Shown: piece by piece, positions 12,671 to 21,148 of the stretch
Layout of the letters: every line of letters begins with the position of its first letter
Numbering within the stretch: position 1 is the stretch's first letter
Assembly (NCBI GenBank): GCA_012964275.1
Contig: DTUG01000136.1
Span: 1-42,048, forward strand
Length of the DNA stretch: 42,048 bases
Source: Fidelibacterota bacterium
Lineage (GTDB): Bacteria; Fidelibacterota; Marinisomatia; Marinisomatales; UBA1611
Direction of reading: 5' to 3'
Notes under the pieces: generated by a model
The model's input: only the letters and a program-made list of their open reading frames with translations
The model's database searches: none
Told to the model about the DNA's origin: nothing
Made by a program: the position numbers and the translations under genes

Positions 12671-14464
12671 TCAAACCGGCCAGATCATTGGTAGAAATAT
12701 AATAGCAGAAACCCAAAACAATATCGCTAGTGGAAACCCTACACGAATAAAATCACTGAATTTGTATCCACCAGGTCCATACACCATTAGATTAGTCTGG
12801 TAACCTACTGGTGTTATAAATGAAGCCGATGCCGCAAAGGCCACAGCAAAAATAAAAGGGCGTGAATCAAATCCCATTTGCACCGAAACGGCAAGGGCAA
12901 CAGGTGTCATGATAATAGCTGTAGCCGCATTGGATGAAATTTCTGTAAGAATCATAGTGATAAGATAGATCAATGCCAGCAAGAAATGGGCGTGCCATTC
13001 TGGAGATGACATTCGTGCTATTTTAGAAATAATCTTACCAATCCATTCGGCTGTTCCTGTAGTCTGAATAACAATTCCAACAGGAATCAACGCAGCGATT
13101 AGAACTATCACCTGCCAGTGAATGGATTGATAACTTTCCTGAGGAGTTAATACCTTAAGTGCTAAAAGAAGTGCTACACCAATAAGAGTGCCCTTCATAA
13201 TGGGCATGATGCCTAATGCGGCAAGAATAACAGCACCCAGAATAATAATAATACTCACCCACCAGAATCGTTGTTTCCGCAATTCTGCTTTAACCTCCCC
13301 AAGTACAATAAAATCGCCTTTGTTTGACAAACTTTCAATATTTTTAGCAGGGCCATAAACAAGCAGTGTGTCATAAGCCTGTAATATTACATGGGCAATC
13401 TTTTTCCGAAAAATATCGCCTTCCCGACGAATGGCCAGAATAAACGCTCCAAACCGTTGTCGAAAATTAGATGCCATCAAGCTTTTTCCAACAAGATCAG
13501 ATTGATCTGTCAAAAGACATTCCACCAGCACATTATCTTCCTGCTCCAATTCAGATTGGGTGAGTTTTTCATCTGTCAATAGCGTGATTTTTTCCACTTC
13601 TTTCATTCGGAGAAAATTCTCGAGAGTGCCCCGGACAAATAATGTATCGCCAACTTGTAATGGTGTTCTGCGAATATTTCGCGTGATGAGTTGCTTTTCC
13701 CGAAGAATATCTAACACCATGACATCATAATTATAATTGATTCCACGGTCTAAACAGGTTTTGCCTATTAAAGGCGATCCTGCAATAATCTTCATTTCAG
13801 TAAGATACCCACCGAGATGGTAACTCTTTGTTAAACTGGATGTAACTGTTCGTGATGGCAATAGTTTTGGAGCAATAAACAGTATATAGATCAATCCCAA
13901 GCTCATAAGTATTACACCGTATCTGGTGAATTCGAACATACCGAGTGGTTCCACACTTCCACTACCGGAATAGATAGAATTCACAAGCAGATTAGTGGAT
14001 GTCCCTACTAAAGTTAAGGTTCCACCCAGAATCGCAGCATAACTCAGTGGAATTAACATTTTGGATGGACTAACCTGGTATGTGTGGGCCAATCGAATCG
14101 TTACTGGCATAAAAATAGCTACAACTGCTGTATTGTTTACCAACGCTGATGCAAATCCAATGGCCATCAAATATACTGCAGTTCCAAGAGTCCGTGATTT
14201 GCTTGCAAGACGATTGATACGGACTACCAAGTATTCCAATACACCCGTTTTTTGCAGTGAATGACTTAATACAAATAAAAATGCTATGGTAATCACAGCG
14301 GGATTAGAAAACCCAGACACGGCTTCGAGAGGTGATAAATACCCTAGTAGAAAAAGGATCGATAAAAGAATCAAGGCAGTCACGTCAAGACTAAAGGTCT
14401 CCGCCACAAATAGTATAAAGCCGAGGGCCAAAAGCCCCAGGATAATGGCAATATCGGGTGTCAT
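12671..14464 (-). CDS. SLC13/DASS family permease with two central TrkA-C (RCK C-terminal) domains
   Basis: 597 aa. Two polytopic membrane halves flank a soluble ~200-aa insert (GKTCLD...VMVLDILR..., GKSLMAS...FILAIRREG) in the TrkA-C pattern. The C-terminal motif ASFITPVGYQTNLMVYGPGGY is DASS-like. Confidence 0.7.
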   Translation of the reverse strand: MTPDIAIILGLLALGFILFVAETFSLDVTALILLSILFLLGYLSPLEAVSGFSNPAVITIAFLFVLSHSLQKTGVLEYLVVRINRLASKSRTLGTAVYLMAIGFASALVNNTAVVAIFMPVTIRLAHTYQVSPSKMLIPLSYAAILGGTLTLVGTSTNLLVNSIYSGSGSVEPLGMFEFTRYGVILMSLGLIYILFIAPKLLPSRTVTSSLTKSYHLGGYLTEMKIIAGSPLIGKTCLDRGINYNYDVMVLDILREKQLITRNIRRTPLQVGDTLFVRGTLENFLRMKEVEKITLLTDEKLTQSELEQEDNVLVECLLTDQSDLVGKSLMASNFRQRFGAFILAIRREGDIFRKKIAHVILQAYDTLLVYGPAKNIESLSNKGDFIVLGEVKAELRKQRFWWVSIIIILGAVILAALGIMPIMKGTLIGVALLLALKVLTPQESYQSIHWQVIVLIAALIPVGIVIQTTGTAEWIGKIISKIARMSSPEWHAHFLLALIYLITMILTEISSNAATAIIMTPVALAVSVQMGFDSRPFIFAVAFAASASFITPVGYQTNLMVYGPGGYKFSDFIRVGFPLAILFWVSAIIFLPMIWPV

Positions 14465-14512: not shown

Positions 14513-14830
14513 CTAACAAAAAGGGTGATCAGTATTTTCAACCGATTTATCATCTCGGTCAGAATTTGACCATCCAGATGTAACTTCATCATCCAAAATA
14601 GAATTAAGAATGGTTTCAATTATAACTTTCCGACGTACATTGTTTAAAACAGCCATAACGAAAATGGGGTATTCCGCATCCGGCAGCACTTTTTCCCATT
14701 CATCAAACAGATCGGTATGATCCAGGAATTTATCTACATCAGGGTCCACTTTAAGTTTATCGGAAACCTCATCCTGAATTGCAAAAAGTTGCATCCTCAG
14801 GTCTTCTTTTGATAAAGATCTTAAACTCAT
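14513..14830 (-). CDS. Hypothetical acidic 105-aa protein, translationally coupled to the HD-GYP gene
   Basis: ORF whose ATG overlaps the upstream gene's stop (ATGA at 14827-14830). No motif recognised. Confidence 0.4.
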   Translation of the reverse strand: MSLRSLSKEDLRMQLFAIQDEVSDKLKVDPDVDKFLDHTDLFDEWEKVLPDAEYPIFVMAVLNNVRRKVIIETILNSILDDEVTSGWSNSDRDDKSVENTDHPFC

Positions 14831-16434
14831 CTCTTTGCAAGGGTTAGTTCTTCATCCACTTCATCGATCTGGTTTTTCGCAACGAACTTATCAGCATATT
14901 TTTTATATACACCGGTTTTTACAAAAATTTCAAACAGGTCTTCATCAATATGGTAATCATTTTTCATAAAACCCATGATCCGCATGGCATCTGATATTTT
15001 CTTGCCATCTTTGTACGGTCGGTCTGGAGCAGTAAGCGCTTCATAAATATCAGCAATGGCCATAATCTTCGCCTGGGGGGACATTTGGTCTTCCTTAAGT
15101 CCTTTTGGATATCCGGTTCCATCCATTTTCTCATGATGACCGCCAGCAAACTCTGGAACATTCTTCAGTTGCTTGGGATAGGGTAATTGCTCCAACATTT
15201 CGATTGTTATGACAATGTGATCATTGATTATTTCCCTTTCCTCAGGCAAGAGTGTGCCTTTTTTTATACTCAAATTTTCAATTTCATTATCAGTAAGAAA
15301 ATTTTCATTATTACCGAACATTAATACTTTTTTTTGTCCAATAGACTTGACTTTTTCCTGATCTTCAGGTTTCATGAATTCACCACCCACATTACTTTTC
15401 TCAAGAAATGCCATGTTTTCTTCCAACTCTTTTATGGAAGAATTGTATTCCTCATCATAATCCTGCGATGGTTCACCATTTAACTGTCTCTTTAAAAAAG
15501 CAATTTCAGCATCTTTCTTCAAGAGTGCCATTCGAGTTCTTATTAATTCAATTCGATCAAAGATTGTCTCTAACTTGGTCCCTTTATCCACAACATGGGG
15601 TGGTGTGGCAACTTTTCCGCAGTCATGTAGCCAGGCAGCAATGTAAAGTTCATAGCGCTCATCTTCTGTCATTGAGAAATCTTTATACTTTCCTTCTGTA
15701 GTCTCCGCGACAGCATCAGCCAGCATCATCGTAATCACCGGAACCCGGGTACAATGACCACCGGTGTACTCGGATTTTTTGTCGATGGCAGTTGCTATAA
15801 GTTGGATAAACGATTCAAAAAGTGTTTTCAATTCTTCAACCAGTTTCTTATTTGTCAGGGCTACAGCACCCTGAGATGCAAGAGATTCCACCTGTTCCTG
15901 CATGTCATCATTAAAAGGAATCACATTGTCATTTTTATCTCTCGCATTGATAAGCTGAACCACACCAATAATATCATTTTCATGGTTTTTTAGTGGAACT
16001 GTTAAGAAGGATTTTGAACGATAGCCGGTATTTTTATCAAATGCTTTCGTTCCCGTAAAATCGAATCCTTCTTCTTCGTATGCATCTCCAATATTCACCG
16101 TTTTCCCAGTAAGCGCCACATAAGCTGATACATTTGTTTGATTTGGAGTTGAATCGTCAATCCAAAGTTGTACGGGATCATAAGGAATGTCCACGCCAGA
16201 TGTTCCACCCATTATTGTATTCATGGTATCATTGCGTAGAATTTCAAATTGTAGATTTCCTTCTTCATTTTTTGAATAAAGTGTCCTACCATCTGCATTA
16301 GAGATATTTCTGGCTTGCTTCAAGATCATTTCAAATAATTTATTGGAATTTCTTTCTGTTGAGAGAGCAATACCGATTTCGCTCAAACGGTGAATTCTTT
16401 CCTCGAGTATTTTTATTTTCTTTTTGTAATCCAT
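14827..16434 (-). CDS. GAF domain / HD-GYP domain c-di-GMP phosphodiesterase
   Basis: HD (AAWLHDCGK) and GGHHEKMDGTGYPKGL (HD-GYP signature). The N-terminal half is GAF-like. Start set to the ATG at 16434 (MDYKKKIKILE...) because the longer track ORF runs into the divergent gene. Confidence 0.8.
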   Translation of the reverse strand: MDYKKKIKILEERIHRLSEIGIALSTERNSNKLFEMILKQARNISNADGRTLYSKNEEGNLQFEILRNDTMNTIMGGTSGVDIPYDPVQLWIDDSTPNQTNVSAYVALTGKTVNIGDAYEEEGFDFTGTKAFDKNTGYRSKSFLTVPLKNHENDIIGVVQLINARDKNDNVIPFNDDMQEQVESLASQGAVALTNKKLVEELKTLFESFIQLIATAIDKKSEYTGGHCTRVPVITMMLADAVAETTEGKYKDFSMTEDERYELYIAAWLHDCGKVATPPHVVDKGTKLETIFDRIELIRTRMALLKKDAEIAFLKRQLNGEPSQDYDEEYNSSIKELEENMAFLEKSNVGGEFMKPEDQEKVKSIGQKKVLMFGNNENFLTDNEIENLSIKKGTLLPEEREIINDHIVITIEMLEQLPYPKQLKNVPEFAGGHHEKMDGTGYPKGLKEDQMSPQAKIMAIADIYEALTAPDRPYKDGKKISDAMRIMGFMKNDYHIDEDLFEIFVKTGVYKKYADKFVAKNQIDEVDEELTLAKR

Positions 16435-16564
16435 AATAATAGAGAATTGAGTGGGAAAGTTTTGTTCCCTTAATGAATGTACAGAATCAGGGTCTATTGG
16501 GCAATATTTCATTCCGCGAAATACTACCATTTATGATGAAGCCATTAAAATCATAATTTTGAGC

Positions 16565-19500
16565 ATGAATCAAGTAAATCAAAGAAGTATTTCAGAACTT
16601 TTTGATCTAGCAGGGAAAAATCGGGTAGATATGGCCAATTTTCGAACGGTACTTGATAATATTGATTCTTCGGACACTGATCACCAAACAATACATCATT
16701 TCTTAGAATGTTTCCATCTTCCGGCAGTAAATAGGATAATTGTGGAAAATCAAGCCACAGATTACTGGTTTGATAAAATAACCCACTTAATACAAAAATC
16801 TCGGTATCATGTTGGACACCTTATAAAACAGCGAACATCTCGTTACGGTGAAAAACCTCTTTTTCTTACTATCGAGGGTGACTCTGTAATATCAGTTTCG
16901 TATAATAAGGTATGGTACGACGTGATCCAAATCGGGCGCGCTTTAGACATGCTTTCGGAAGAAGAAATGGAACCTGTTATTGGCTTGCTTTCTTATAATC
17001 AATATAGGTGTGCTTTATTGGATTTAGCCTGCTTATCATTTGGATTCCGGGTAGTTCCAATTCCGCTAAATACCACTATTGAACATTTGTCGCATATTCT
17101 ACATGAAGCAGAGATCACACACCTTTTTATCGGTGGAGAAAAAGGGGCTCGGCTCTGGAATGCGATATTTAAAGGGTATGATTTGGCTATTATTGATCTT
17201 AACGAAATAAATTCTTTGAAAGGTCAAATAACATCTTGGGAAACGTTTCGGGATCTTTCAGATAAAAATGAAAAATTTGATTTAAATCATCGTTTGGAGA
17301 GCCAGGATATGACTTGGCCCATCACTATCATGTATACATCTGGTTCTACCGATCAGCCAAAGGGCGTCATATTCAATCAGGTAAACCTGATGTCAAAACG
17401 ATTTGCGAGAGCTATGGCCTTGCCTGAATTTTCCTCATCAGACACATTCTTATGCTATTTACCCTTGTTTCACACTTTTGGTCGTTATTTTGAATTATTA
17501 GGTTCGATTTTCTGGGGAGCGACTTATGCCTTTGCAGAATCGCCAGCATTCAATTCGTTATTAAAGGATTTCCAACTGGTTTCGCCCAGTATATTTATTA
17601 GTATACCAAAACGCTGGATACAATTATATGAATATCTGGAAGAAAAACTTGAACTTGATTCCGCTTCTGATACAATAATCTGTCAGAAATTAACGGATAT
17701 CACTGGCGGGCAATTACAATGGGGATTATCTGCTGCAGGATATTTAGACCCTGATTATTTTAAGTTTTTTCAGGAGCATGGTATACAATTGCTGAGTGGA
17801 TATGGTATGACGGAAGCAACCGGTGGGATCACCATGACTCCCCCAGGGAATTATTTGGATAATTCGGTTGGAAAATCTCTGCCTGGCATAAAACTGAAAA
17901 TAGCTGAGGACGGAGAACTGTGTATGCAAGGACCGTATGTTTCAAATGGATTTTATAAAACCAAAGATTCAGAATCATTTAAGAATGGGTGGTTCCATAG
18001 CGGAGATATTTTTGAAAAAAGAGGTAATCATTTTTTTATTATAGATAGAAAAAAAGATATATATAAAAATAGTCGCGGCCAGACGATCGCACCCCAAAAG
18101 ATCGAGAATCTTTTTCAGGATTTTGATTCGGTGCAATCTGTTTTTCTTGCCGGTGATGGCCGGGAGTTTAATACGGTGCTCATTTATCCTGATAAGGAAA
18201 ACATACCATATGATTTATATAATGTGGACAATCAGAAAATTCGTGATCTTTTCAGCGGCATGTTGGTATCGGTAAATAGTTTTTTATCAGCTTTTGAACG
18301 TATCGTGAATTTTGCAATTATTGATCGGGACTTTAGTATAGAAAAAGGCGAACTGACTCAAAAGGGAACATTTAACAGGAAAAATGTCCTAAAAAATTTT
18401 TCTAAAATGATTGAACCCATGTACGAACGAAACTATGTCAGCTTGCACTCAGGTACAAAAGAAATATGGTTCCCCAATTGGTTGATACGAGAAAAAGGTA
18501 CTGTAAAAACAAATCTGAGTTGGGATGGCAATAAAATTTCTATAAAAGGACAAGACCAAACGCTAAGACTAATATGGACCGATTCAAATCTGCAGGTGGG
18601 CGAATTCAAATATCATACCGATTCGCAGATTCTGGATTTACAATCATTTGTTAATTCTCCAAATCTCTGGCTGGGGAATAATGAGTTTACGCTATTCACA
18701 TCTGAAACTGTTTTCAGGATCAAAGAGGCAGACCTCACTACTGAGATTCGGGTCAAAATTGATTCTGATACATTTGCATTAACTAAGATCGATAAAAAAG
18801 ATAATGAAAATGAAACCAATTCATTAGAAAAGATTCATCATTCCGTTCGTTCTTATCTTTCTAATGAGCAATCCTTTTTTGATGCCTTAATACATATCCT
18901 GAATCTTGATATCTTTGAATGGTCCGACGTTATCCTGGATACATTACTGCAATACCAAGAACATCCAGATCCAAATTTCAGGTTGAAAATGATCGAGGCC
19001 ATTGCTCCAATATTATCGGGTGATTTTTTTATTAATCTCCTTGAAACTACTTATCACTATTACCGAAAAAACAATGGTAAGAAGGAGTTTGCATTTGATA
19101 TTGATCGATTAACAGAATCGCAATACCGCTCTCTTATTCTATTTCTAAATGATACGCATGAAAATGTTAATGATCTGGAACAGGCTGATTTTGACTTTAT
19201 TCAAACAGTGCTTTTCATGATATCAGAATATGGTGTGATCCATCCTACTCAATTTATTTTGGCTAGGTCGGAATTGGTCTCTTGGCAATTCTCTAATGTA
19301 CCAAAACCGATCTATTCAGCTGCACAGAAGGCATATTACAACCTTGTAAACGGGTTTCGAACGTGGATTGGTCCCAATACATCCATAACAGTTGACAGAA
19401 ATACACAAGAGGAATATTCTTGGAAAGATGTTATTGAATTTGATGATAATGTGCGTACTCGACATAAAAAGGTACTCTTGGAAACATTGAGTAAAACAGC

Positions 19501-21148
19501 GTTAATCAGAGAAGCAGTATTTATTTTTTCCTCCAATTGTCTAATTCAATTAGCTGATATCCCTAAAGAGGGTGTGTGGGTAACACACCTAGGAACAAAA
19601 CACGGGAAAAGCGTATTTCGTGTACTCATACATACCCTGACACTTGGAACTCATAATCTTGTTATCAATCTAAATGAAGACCTTGACCGGAATTTTCTCG
19701 AAGATGAGATCCGGTGGCTCATTTTAATGGGATCCGGTTTCAAGGACAAACAGTTAGTTGAAAATTTTGGTGGTTACTGGCCAGAATACCTGTTGTATAC
19801 GGAGGAATATATACCCGGAGAAACACTTATCCAGTATTTCAAACGAAATAAGGCTGAAATAAAGGATGAAACTGCCCTTGATCGGTGGCAAATGCGGTGG
19901 CTTCATTTTATATGGAACGGGATTCAGGCCTATTTGGAATTCTGGAGTCGAACAAATTTCAAGTTAGGAATTCAACCACCCATTCCAGATAATCTTATCA
20001 TTCCGCCACATGATTATACTACTGGAACTCGTCTCATCTCTATATCAGGGCGGCAGGAAATCAAGTCTGTAGGTGAATATTTTCTCAACCTGTTTACGCT
20101 ATTTATAGCCAAAACAGAATCACAATTCCCTGGATTAAAACATATGGCTGATTGGGAAGTGATCTTTACTGCTGCTCTTCAGGCAACAAAAGTGAAAAGG
20201 GGTATTCCGCTACTGGAAGAACTGGGAAAGGATCTCAAAAATCGTAAGCTTAAAAAACAATTTCGGGAAATTGGACTTACTCAGGACCGAATTAATAAGT
20301 TTATTAAAGAATTCGATAATTTTGGCGTTTTAACAAAACCAGTTGTTTTTGCCGCCTTAAGATATGAACGTTGGCTGGATTTAAATCCGGGAGCAACCGA
20401 TCAGGCCAAGGCATCTATCCTGCGAGAACTCTACAATGATTATGATTTGAATTCATTGCTTGAAGAGTATCCTGAAACCCGCGTACGATTTTTTATGATG
20501 ACCTGTCTAAAGGATTCAGGTCCTGAACTCACAAACTTTTTTCAATCCATAATCCAAGAAATGAGACGAAAAGAATTAAGCCCATGGAGCCTGAAAGATC
20601 GCATAGAGGATATCCAGCAAAAAACGTCCTTGACTGAAAAGGAAAAATATTTTCTCGCCAGAATGCTTTTCCCACATGTGGACGCTGCCGATTATGTAGA
20701 ACTTGTCACTACAGCAAAAGGTGATAAGGAAAAATTAAACCTAATTTATGGAACAGAAGGTGCTGATGGTCAATTATATCGTATTCGCCCTCCTTTCCAT
20801 CCAAAGGAAATAGCCCGTTTCTACTCTCTAATGACTAAAGAAACTTTATCTGGGACTTTTACTTCCAGTCATGAATTTCTATTTATTTTCAATTCTCGGA
20901 ATAGACTGGTTGGCGGTCTATATTGGAATACTCCCAGTGATTCACGTATCCATTTGGAATGGATCATAATTCGCAACAAATATCGGCAATTACTGTTGAG
21001 CAAACGATTAATGACGGAATTTTATCACCGTATGAAACAGCGGGGTATCAAAGTCATTACTGTAGGGTTTTATTTAGAAAGCTTTTTCTATAAACAAGGA
21101 TTTAAAATTGATCGACATTATGGCGGTCTGGTTAAAAAATTAAATTAA
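16565..21148 (+). CDS. Giant fusion protein: long-chain acyl-CoA synthetase-like ANL adenylating domain + ~800-aa unknown (weakly kinase-fold-like) region + C-terminal GNAT acetyltransferase
   Basis: ANL motifs: IMYTSGSTDQPKGV, GYGMTEATGG, WFHSGDIF, IIDRKKDIYKNSRGQTIAPQKIEN, LTQKGTFNRKNV. C-terminal GNAT-like region: LVGGLYWN...IHLEWIIIRNKYRQLLLSKRLMTEFYHRMKQRGIKVITVGFY. Start set to ATG 16565; the track's GTG 16451 overlaps the divergent gene. Confidence 0.7.
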   Translation: MNQVNQRSISELFDLAGKNRVDMANFRTVLDNIDSSDTDHQTIHHFLECFHLPAVNRIIVENQATDYWFDKITHLIQKSRYHVGHLIKQRTSRYGEKPLFLTIEGDSVISVSYNKVWYDVIQIGRALDMLSEEEMEPVIGLLSYNQYRCALLDLACLSFGFRVVPIPLNTTIEHLSHILHEAEITHLFIGGEKGARLWNAIFKGYDLAIIDLNEINSLKGQITSWETFRDLSDKNEKFDLNHRLESQDMTWPITIMYTSGSTDQPKGVIFNQVNLMSKRFARAMALPEFSSSDTFLCYLPLFHTFGRYFELLGSIFWGATYAFAESPAFNSLLKDFQLVSPSIFISIPKRWIQLYEYLEEKLELDSASDTIICQKLTDITGGQLQWGLSAAGYLDPDYFKFFQEHGIQLLSGYGMTEATGGITMTPPGNYLDNSVGKSLPGIKLKIAEDGELCMQGPYVSNGFYKTKDSESFKNGWFHSGDIFEKRGNHFFIIDRKKDIYKNSRGQTIAPQKIENLFQDFDSVQSVFLAGDGREFNTVLIYPDKENIPYDLYNVDNQKIRDLFSGMLVSVNSFLSAFERIVNFAIIDRDFSIEKGELTQKGTFNRKNVLKNFSKMIEPMYERNYVSLHSGTKEIWFPNWLIREKGTVKTNLSWDGNKISIKGQDQTLRLIWTDSNLQVGEFKYHTDSQILDLQSFVNSPNLWLGNNEFTLFTSETVFRIKEADLTTEIRVKIDSDTFALTKIDKKDNENETNSLEKIHHSVRSYLSNEQSFFDALIHILNLDIFEWSDVILDTLLQYQEHPDPNFRLKMIEAIAPILSGDFFINLLETTYHYYRKNNGKKEFAFDIDRLTESQYRSLILFLNDTHENVNDLEQADFDFIQTVLFMISEYGVIHPTQFILARSELVSWQFSNVPKPIYSAAQKAYYNLVNGFRTWIGPNTSITVDRNTQEEYSWKDVIEFDDNVRTRHKKVLLETLSKTALIREAVFIFSSNCLIQLADIPKEGVWVTHLGTKHGKSVFRVLIHTLTLGTHNLVINLNEDLDRNFLEDEIRWLILMGSGFKDKQLVENFGGYWPEYLLYTEEYIPGETLIQYFKRNKAEIKDETALDRWQMRWLHFIWNGIQAYLEFWSRTNFKLGIQPPIPDNLIIPPHDYTTGTRLISISGRQEIKSVGEYFLNLFTLFIAKTESQFPGLKHMADWEVIFTAALQATKVKRGIPLLEELGKDLKNRKLKKQFREIGLTQDRINKFIKEFDNFGVLTKPVVFAALRYERWLDLNPGATDQAKASILRELYNDYDLNSLLEEYPETRVRFFMMTCLKDSGPELTNFFQSIIQEMRRKELSPWSLKDRIEDIQQKTSLTEKEKYFLARMLFPHVDAADYVELVTTAKGDKEKLNLIYGTEGADGQLYRIRPPFHPKEIARFYSLMTKETLSGTFTSSHEFLFIFNSRNRLVGGLYWNTPSDSRIHLEWIIIRNKYRQLLLSKRLMTEFYHRMKQRGIKVITVGFYLESFFYKQGFKIDRHYGGLVKKLN

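Follow-up and report, generated by a model that had tools for sequence, protein, structure and literature searches.

The window analyzed here is a stretch of 42,048 nucleotides (nt) (contig DTUG01000136.1) from a marine SAR406 (Marinimicrobia) bacterium, the assembly of which is 82% complete with a contamination of 2.6%. On its forward strand lies a gene for a large fusion protein in which an AMP-forming ligase of the ANL superfamily, a long middle region and a GNAT domain are joined in a single chain. Translation of the window gave 1527 codons without an internal stop for this gene (Table 1). The longest frame opens farther upstream, with a GTG at position 16451. Since a homologue of 99% identity on a metagenome contig of 69.5 kb is also 1527 amino acids (aa) long, the ATG at position 16565 is the likely start. 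The first-pass annotation of the window had described a layout of ligase, middle and GNAT from the sequence alone, and Pfam matches, structural models and full-length homologues agreed that this layout is real.

Table 1. The fusion gene, its parts and two upstream neighbors in the window
Feature	Position	Strand	Evidence or remark
Whole gene, ligase-solenoid-predicted pseudokinase-GNAT fusion, 1527 aa	16565..21148	+	Stop codon 21146-21148
N-terminal extension ahead of ligase core, residues 1-89	16565..16831	+	L47, W68 and R90 invariant across phyla
ANL (AMP-binding) large N-terminal subdomain, residues 90-464	16832..17956	+	Pfam PF00501, E 2.9e-47; motifs MYTSGSTDQPKG, LPLFHTFGR, SGYGMTEATGG
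ANL C-terminal subdomain (PF23562, AMP-binding_C_3, LACS/CAR type), residues 503-622	18071..18430	+	Pfam E 5e-12
Small beta-rich domain directly after ligase, residues ~640-740	18482..18784	+	AlphaFold2 model and conservation
Alpha-solenoid, ARM/HEAT-like, residues ~753-935	18821..19369	+	Helix pattern in model; weak profile match
Small alpha/beta lead-in and protein-kinase-like bilobal fold, residues 939-1190	19379..20134	+	AlphaFold2 model, Foldseek, residue analysis
Helical bundle, residues ~1197-1370	20153..20674	+	AlphaFold2 model and conservation
GNAT domain with extra N-terminal beta-hairpin, residues ~1378-1527	20696..21145	+	Pfam PF13673, Foldseek
GAF and HD-GYP protein, divergent neighbor (context)	14827..16530	-	Immediate upstream neighbor in 53/107 loci (26 sequence groups)
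CitMHS-family anion transporter, 597 aa, two TrkA_C domains (context)	12671..14464	-	Position -2 or -3 in 51/107 loci (26 sequence groups)

The ligase end was matched by PF00501 with 161.7 bits (cut-off 29.9) and by PF23562 with 46.7 bits (cut-off 20.8). All core motifs of ANL enzymes were found, namely YTSGSTDQPKG (A3), SGYGMTEATGG (A5), HSGDIF (A7), IDRKKDIYK (A8 hinge) and ELTQK600GTFNRK (A10), with the hinge segment DRKKDIYK at residues 494-501, just ahead of the PF23562 match. The segment NGWFHSGDIF...IIDRKKDIYK is like the fatty acyl-CoA synthetase (FACS) signature. Over 28 sequences from several phyla, the ligase held about 70 of the 90 invariant residues, including TSGxT..PKG, GxGMTE.TGG, GD, DRxK and E596, T598, K600 and R605. 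The A10-like segment reads ELTxKG(T/S)xxRK across phyla, and its invariant lysine, K600, stands two residues earlier than in carboxylic acid reductases (CAR) or ACSL. With every motif for the adenylation and thioester steps kept and the strongest conservation in the protein, the ligase looks fully active.

Among solved structures, those nearest to the ligase were CAR adenylation domains, luciferases and a long-chain ligase of Drosophila, and its likeness to CAR and long-chain acyl-CoA synthetase (LACS) enzymes is generic only. None of the NCBIfam equivalog cut-offs was reached, the best scores being 137.6 bits for FadD11 (cut-off 950) and 135.9 bits for PRK06187 (cut-off 476). Thus, the earlier naming of the N terminus as a long-chain acyl-CoA synthetase holds for the intact ANL core motifs, while the long-chain specificity is not borne out by scores so far below the cut-offs. 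The Pfam scan of the protein gave no match to the PP-binding carrier domain (PF00550) after the ligase, and the segment that follows is beta-rich in the model, unlike the four-helix bundle of carrier proteins.

For the middle region (residues 640-1405), nothing credible was found in Pfam or NCBIfam. Searches of PDB sequences with middle-region profiles (phmmer, and hmmsearch with three profiles) and a Pfam scan of 29 homologues gave no match beyond a weak armadillo (ARM) signal, in which residues ~753-903 matched designed ARM-repeat proteins (profile search of PDB sequences, E 8e-6). Two AlphaFold2 models were then used. The first (m90afc8f73c6a) covered residues 640-1527 with an alignment of 29 homologues from the same phylum and had a mean predicted local distance difference test score (pLDDT) of 87.3 and a predicted template modeling score (pTM) of 0.76. 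The second (md2f5daca287b) covered residues 939-1374 with 35 sequences, six of them from other phyla, and had a pLDDT of 92.0 and a pTM of 0.88. The first model consisted of five parts: a beta domain, a run of paired helices at 753-935, a lead-in with a bilobal domain, a helical bundle and a GNAT fold.

When the first model was compared with the PDB by Foldseek, two classes of match were obtained, kinases and GNATs, the kinases being VPS34, LRRK2, PRPK/Bud32, KIT, JAK2 and corramycin phosphotransferase. The second model gave 261 PDB matches at E ≤ 1e-3, and all of the 50 best matches listed were of kinase fold; the best was human PRPK (E 4e-5, template modeling [TM] score 0.60), and Cex1p, a pseudokinase with HEAT repeats, was also among the matches. 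The first-pass annotation had seen a weak kinase-like pattern without HxD or DFG in the middle, and the models and Foldseek bear this out at the level of fold. The strings it quoted are all present, VFRVLIH at 1017-1023, YTEEYIPGETL at 1078-1088, IPDNLIIPPHD at 1140-1150 and TRLISISG at 1155-1162, and they map, in order, to beta-2, the hinge, the catalytic-loop position and beta-8 of the kinase-like fold, which is predicted with high confidence. Hence, the domain and structure searches proposed for the middle left the sequence libraries blank and yielded a kinase-like fold as one of five parts.

Conservation was mapped on the kinase model from multi-phylum sets of 28 and 21 sequences. No beta-3 lysine is conserved in the N-lobe, where the protein reads LVINLN and other phyla read YDLLL. 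The HRD aspartate is missing, the position being G-I-Q-P, and the DFG aspartate is missing as well, since the segment after beta-8 reads I-S-I-S-G (LISISG). The catalytic loop is represented by a remnant, P1141-x-N1143, which is kept in at least 90% of the sequences. Because the beta-3 lysine, the HRD aspartate and the DFG aspartate are all missing, the kinase-like fold is, on this residue pattern, clearly a predicted dead pseudokinase. It has residues specific to the family: R1019 in beta-2 and W1112 in helix E, which like G1003 are kept in at least 90% of the sequences, and an invariant D1150 in the turn between beta-7 and beta-8. The Pkinase, APH, ABC1 and RIO1 profiles had no Pfam match in the window protein or in the 29 homologues, and membership of the ABC1/UbiB or APH families was rejected because of the absence of a profile match together with the missing catalytic residues.

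The other parts of the middle differ in conservation. The beta domain has residues invariant across phyla (P637, W639, G679, Y683, W702, N705 and F711), the solenoid is poorly conserved in sequence, and the helical bundle is the best-conserved part of the middle, with A1263, W1270, N1274, A1281, Y1293 and T1313 invariant and R1266 and R1306 kept in at least 90% of the sequences. A PADLOC scan gave no match, and a role as a defense system was rejected on that ground.

At the C terminus, Pfam matched Acetyltransf_10 (PF13673) to residues 1410-1514 with 29.2 bits (cut-off 23.6), and the many GNAT-class Foldseek matches included SACOL1063, which had the highest TM score (0.71), HP0935, PaiA, Ard1, tGCN5 and PatZ (9it0). 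Residue statistics were taken over 392 full-length family members. The acidic residue of beta-4, E1465, is E or D in 367 of them, R1489 is kept in 385 and E1415 in 382, and G1451 of the G1450-G1451 bulge is kept in 391; the window protein also has a helix reading FFYKQGF. The phosphate loop of GNAT motif A is defined as R/Q-x-x-G-x-G/A (PMC8556138). In the window protein this motif is degenerate (R1474-Q-L-L-L-S1479), with leucine in place of glycine. The glycine, within a canonical R/Q-x-x-G-x-G/S, is present in 220 of the 392 members and lost in 172, including the clade of the window, while other phyla show a canonical motif A such as QGGGIGG or QGRGISG. In sequence, the GNAT of a canonical member matched Tetrahymena GCN5 only marginally (E 0.02). 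The last ~130 aa had been called GNAT-like; Pfam and Foldseek confirm the fold, with a degenerate phosphate loop in the window protein.

We then analyzed how widely the fusion occurs. A sample of 301 genomes taken from across the Marinimicrobia contained 111 that encode the middle region, in 36 of 104 genera and with identities down to 26%, and these matches lay nearly always within an open frame of 1500-1650 aa. The region was not found in a Marinimicrobia clade with genomes of ~1 Mb. An exhaustive profile search of 1.84 billion representative proteins returned 430 clusters (50% identity) at E ≤ 1e-3, while 185 reached E ≤ 1e-30. In all full-length proteins among the 150 best matches, the middle occupied residues ~620-1560 of 1500-1710 aa. 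The same architecture was present in metagenome-assembled genomes (MAGs) labeled Longimicrobiales/Gemmatimonadota, and a search from a distant member found it in MAGs labeled Polyangiaceae, Eisenbacteria, Krumholzibacteria, Latescibacteria, Methylomirabilis, Xanthomonadales/Lysobacterales and Gemmatimonas. The order of the parts was constant among the full-length members listed, which argues that the parts work together. The names that databases give to the homologues are only "GNAT family N-acetyltransferase," "AMP-binding protein" and "long-chain acyl-CoA synthetase."

The phyletic survey that had been proposed therefore placed the fusion in several phyla, and it also bears on the alternative, raised with the first description, that the open reading frame (ORF) is an assembly chimera or a product of mis-joined genes. 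This explanation is practically untenable. The same continuous frame recurs in over 100 genomes that were assembled independently of one another, as well as in hundreds of contigs from metagenomes, with several phyla represented, and the 99%-identical protein of the 69.5-kb contig has the same length; conservation of the frame across independent assemblies rules the chimera out. Natural split versions without the ligase were also considered and rejected, as the shorter proteins were fragments or frameshifted genes. For example, P0285 (locus L059, 3574-8150) was called as proteins of 387 aa and 1049 aa, the latter without PF00501, and tblastn showed one gene in three frames with two frameshifts, which are either errors of a long-read assembly or signs of a pseudogene. 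A second fragment was present in the assembly of the window (G000:C148:6-215, locus L003), on a contig of 2.3 kb with an open frame of 198 aa. It is 64% identical to fusion residues ~1330-1399; either the gene has a second, diverged copy here or the contig belongs to another strain.

The gene neighborhood was surveyed in 107 loci from genomes and metagenome contigs, which fall into 64 groups when the fusion protein is clustered at 70% identity. In the window and in the census loci the fusion gene is usually solitary, with a divergent gene upstream and a convergent gene downstream, and no universal operon partner was found across the 107 loci. Citrate synthase (PF00285) is encoded within one to four genes of the fusion in 10 of the 64 groups, in several arrangements. 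It is the adjacent upstream gene in the same orientation, 108-391 nt away (L122, L123, L127 and L138), or lies four genes upstream on the same strand (L124), or one or two genes downstream in convergent orientation (L035, L044-L046, L059 and L125). At L059, the gene of the citrate synthase family is followed by two genes with domains of the succinyl-CoA/citryl-CoA synthetase type. A comparison of coordinates found the fusion and citrate synthase less than 4 kb apart in ~22 genomes from two deep families of the phylum. Assuming one citrate synthase per some 2000-3000 genes, about 0.1 such cases would be expected among the 64 groups, and by this rough estimate the number of independent arrangements is far above chance. 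Citrate synthase is the sole neighbor that recurs across lineages in differing arrangements. That the fusion gene repeatedly adjoins citrate synthase in other lineages suggests a role for the family at the acyl-CoA/citrate node of central metabolism. Two further observations were made by eye at L044-L046 (C48, one deep family): a protein of 131-157 aa that appears to be a single-domain response regulator is encoded between the fusion and citrate synthase, and the divergent upstream neighbor is glutamate dehydrogenase.

The most economical reading of the protein is a transfer in cis, in which the AMP-forming ligase supplies the GNAT. From ATP, coenzyme A (CoA) and a free carboxylic acid, which is probably fatty or otherwise hydrophobic, the ligase would form acyl-CoA, and the GNAT would consume this acyl-CoA directly in the N-acylation of an amine. 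Since no carrier domain was detected, the acyl group would be carried by free CoA. The platform of solenoid, predicted pseudokinase and helices would select or position the target, or bind an allosteric ligand. We regard this reading, in which the solenoid and pseudokinase serve as a platform for a target or a ligand, as quite possible though short of probable. A solitary gene fits a self-sufficient enzyme. The acceptor would most likely be a lysine of a target protein. Solenoids of the ARM/HEAT type and pseudokinases typically serve to dock proteins or bind ligands, the GNAT is similar to protein or general acetyltransferases, and the sole cross-lineage neighbor is a central metabolic enzyme and not a lipid gene; on these three grounds a protein lysine is favored. 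In its more specific form, the proposal would make the family a new class among bacterial protein acyltransferases, a "writer" able to produce its own acyl-CoA from free acid and ATP and to pick its targets by means of the solenoid, pseudokinase and bundle, with citrate synthase or another enzyme of the acetyl-CoA/citrate junction as the candidate target. This form is rather speculative, and we hold it with considerable reserve.

Several observations weigh against the transfer of acyl groups in cis and against the link with citrate synthase. The degenerate RQLLLS loop may mean that CoA binding by the GNAT is weakened or changed in the clade of the window, and the candidate catalytic tyrosine of helix alpha-4 (Y1509) is kept in just 124 of the 392 members. 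None of the 34 genomes checked of the order of the window had the fusion close to citrate synthase, and in the genome of the window the two genes are on separate contigs (C136 and C4). Where the two are linked, citrate synthase is often convergent and thus not co-transcribed. In addition, most relatives carry two to five stand-alone PF23562 (LACS) ligases of ~600 aa, and as other sources of acyl-CoA thus exist in most relatives, channeling is not forced. For the same reason the fusion is an additional, specialized paralogue and not a housekeeping fatty-acid ligase. In the assembly of the window, PF23562 is found in the fusion only; four acyl-CoA dehydrogenases, a canonical acetate-CoA ligase (1017 bits) and an acetoacetate-CoA ligase are also encoded. 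A role of the fusion as replacement for an ordinary long-chain ligase would fit this assembly and the single-contig genome G186, but it was rejected because it does not fit most relatives.

Acylation in cis has to be weighed against other explanations, one of which is a self-regulating acyl-CoA synthetase. Here acyl-CoA would be the output, the GNAT would acylate K600 of its own chain, and the pseudokinase/helical module would sense a nucleotide or metabolite and thereby control the switch. Acetylation of the A10 lysine of ANL enzymes by a GNAT is a known control (PMC4053389, PMC11619455, PMC8556138), and in type III GNATs the sensors are ligand-binding domains fused to the enzyme (PMC8556138). 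The invariance of K600, the conservation of the ligase above all other parts and the proximity of citrate synthase, which would suit a ligase feeding the tricarboxylic acid (TCA) cycle, are consistent with such a switch. However, the A10 segment reads ELTxKG(T/S)xxRK and not PX4GK, the motif that Pat-type enzymes recognize. A sensor of 760 aa would be very large for this purpose, the genome already has the canonical Acs and the acetoacetate-CoA ligase, and we know of no case of a writer fused to its own substrate. We consider self-regulation doubtful. Somewhat less likely is that the GNAT acylates a small molecule or lipid, such as an amino acid, polyamine or head-group amine, to give an N-acyl amino acid or aminolipid, with the dead kinase fold as acceptor pocket. 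The LACS/CAR-type ligase with its FACS-like segment would suit this product, the fold matches include small-molecule kinases, for example corramycin phosphotransferase, and pairs of ANL and GNAT enzymes give N-acyl products elsewhere (PMC8003330). In two related non-Marinimicrobia loci (L050, 8769-9971; L055, 4810-6000), a gene for the membrane protein LPG_synthase_TM (PF03706, MprF flippase-like) immediately precedes the fusion in the same orientation, 0-30 nt away, and a PAP2 gene is downstream in a few loci. Yet the LPG_synthase_TM link is confined to one lineage, no consistently linked membrane segment or lipid-synthesis gene was found across the 107 loci, the commonest cross-lineage neighbor is citrate synthase and not a lipid gene, and the nearest matches of the GNAT are protein or general acetyltransferases. 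N-acylation of a lipid, amine or protein had been suggested when the gene was first described; a lipid or amine acceptor now finds little support, and the neighborhoods point more to the citrate/acyl-CoA node.

It is also conceivable, and in our judgment quite unlikely, that the protein is a specialized acyl-CoA ligase with non-catalytic appendages, the GNAT and pseudokinase being structural or acyl-CoA-sensing in this clade. The loss of the motif A glycine in the clade of the window and in 172 members overall, the poor conservation of Y1509 and the clearly dead kinase fold would all fit, and Pat offers the precedent of an enzyme-derived domain kept as a pure regulator (PMC8556138). On the other hand, the acidic residue of beta-4, R1489, the G1450-G1451 bulge and the FxxGF helix are kept even in the clade without the glycine, which argues for continued selection on the active site of the GNAT.

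The fusion shares its parts or its logic with several known systems. Pat, PatZ/YfiQ and PatA (of Salmonella, E. coli and Streptomyces lividans) are likewise large multidomain proteins with a domain related to acyl-CoA synthetases and a GNAT in one chain, and the non-GNAT part of Pat-type enzymes is thought to sense or regulate (PMC8556138). However, the synthetase part of Pat is nucleoside diphosphate (NDP)-forming and catalytically dead, whereas the fusion has an AMP-forming ANL ligase in which every catalytic motif is intact, and Pat has neither the solenoid nor the kinase fold. No Pfam match to CoA_binding, CoA_binding_2, Succ_CoA_lig or ATP-grasp_5 was found in the 1527 aa at E ≤ 1, and membership of the Pat type was rejected, since the NDP-forming synthetase domain by which the type is defined (PMC8556138) is missing. 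The initial view of a Pat-like but differently built enzyme thus stands as to the shared logic and the AMP-forming part, with the likeness confined to that logic. In the Acs-Pat and AcsA-AcuA switches the same two enzyme families interact, the GNAT acetylating the A10 lysine of the ANL ligase. The ligase of those systems carries a PX4GK site. They consist of separate proteins acting in trans, whereas the fusion is one chain with the parts 760 aa apart and a differing A10 context.

A transfer from an adenylating enzyme to a GNAT fold, as proposed for the fusion, has other parallels. FadD33, MbtL and MbtK of mycobactin synthesis follow the same logic from adenylation to amide formation on a GNAT fold. 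In Ebony, the Drosophila beta-alanyl-amine synthase, the condensation domain is described as GNAT-type (Izore et al. 2019, as cited in PMC8072286), and according to that citation an adenylating enzyme supplies the acyl thioester to a GNAT-fold domain that forms the amide. The Ebony and MbtK systems hold the acyl group on the phosphopantetheine arm of a carrier and have no pseudokinase or solenoid, unlike the fusion, in which no carrier domain was detected. Glycine conjugation by ACSM2B and GLYAT proceeds by the same logic, from ligase to acyl-CoA to N-acyltransferase (PMC8003330), but with two separate mitochondrial proteins, known substrates and no scaffold domains. The bilobal kinase fold is held in common with PRPK/Bud32 (TM 0.55-0.60), corramycin phosphotransferase, APH and Cex1p/SCY1-like proteins, and Cex1p, like the fusion, pairs a pseudokinase with helical repeats. 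The fusion differs from the kinases in the missing beta-3 lysine, HRD aspartate and DFG aspartate and in its own conserved R1019, W1112 and D1150. AAC(6')-Ie/APH(2'')-Ia joins a GNAT and a kinase-fold domain in one chain. Both of its domains are active and act independently on one antibiotic, while the kinase fold of the fusion appears dead and a ligase is added.

Bacterial GNAT acetyltransferases have been divided into five types, which include those with NDP-forming synthetase-like domains, those with cAMP, NADP or ACT sensor domains, GNAT-only proteins and tandem GNATs, and none of the five has an AMP-forming ligase or a kinase fold (PMC8556138). In the literature and family libraries searched, no description of a ligase-pseudokinase-GNAT architecture was found, in agreement with the initial remark that the three-part fusion was not recognizable as a described one. 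All domains of the fusion belong to known superfamilies, and it is the combination that is undescribed. If the ligase feeds the GNAT in cis, the protein would be without precedent among known acyltransferases in producing its acyl-CoA donor within its own chain, and it would represent a new use of a pseudokinase in bacteria. If the family is indeed a protein writer, there would be a direct coupling between the supply of a given organic or fatty acid and the control, by acylation, of the entry of carbon into the TCA cycle. The family is large and occurs in abundant uncultured lineages, including SAR406/Marinimicrobia, Gemmatimonadota and Latescibacteria. The placement beside citrate synthase is a concrete lead to its function, and identification of the acid and the acceptor could bring to light either a regulatory acylation, so far undescribed, where the TCA cycle begins or a new family of N-acyl metabolites of the dark ocean.

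The remaining neighbors are of more local distribution. Upstream of the fusion in the window are the divergent GAF/HD-GYP phosphodiesterase gene, an ORF of 105 aa, the CitMHS/TrkA_C transporter gene and a MatE gene; the 105-aa ORF overlaps the HD-GYP gene, within window positions 14513-16564 on the reverse strand. Downstream, and convergent, are DUF420, ctaB, SCO1 and ctaA, and DUF420 is the immediate downstream neighbor in 48 of the 107 loci. The gap between the HD-GYP gene and the fusion is as short as 24-81 nt in the loci for which it was printed. This arrangement of HD-GYP, transporter and DUF420 is widespread among the Marinimicrobia-type loci nearest to the window and was not seen in the more distant loci inspected. 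It may be inherited synteny, and the adjacency of the HD-GYP gene could reflect either shared regulation or simple synteny. At L051, in another lineage, a gene combining CitMHS with a response regulator is ~7 kb upstream of the fusion.

Among the stand-alone ~600-aa ligase paralogues, the PF23562 match spans a single in-frame stop in at least 15 genomes (for example, G160:C11, G029:C1, G146:C84 and G058:C26), where the alignment may merely overrun the end of the gene. At L056 (4190-6004) and L058 (4203-6001), the genes ahead of the fusion encode a histidine kinase and an OmpR-type response regulator, and the stop codon of the regulator overlaps the start of the fusion. A gene for a PrsW protease is convergent downstream in three loci (L056, L058 and L049). 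The other neighbors in distant loci are mixed and include genes for CTP synthase, a TPR protein, an M28 peptidase, a phytoene/squalene synthase, an esterase, PAP2 and an amylase.

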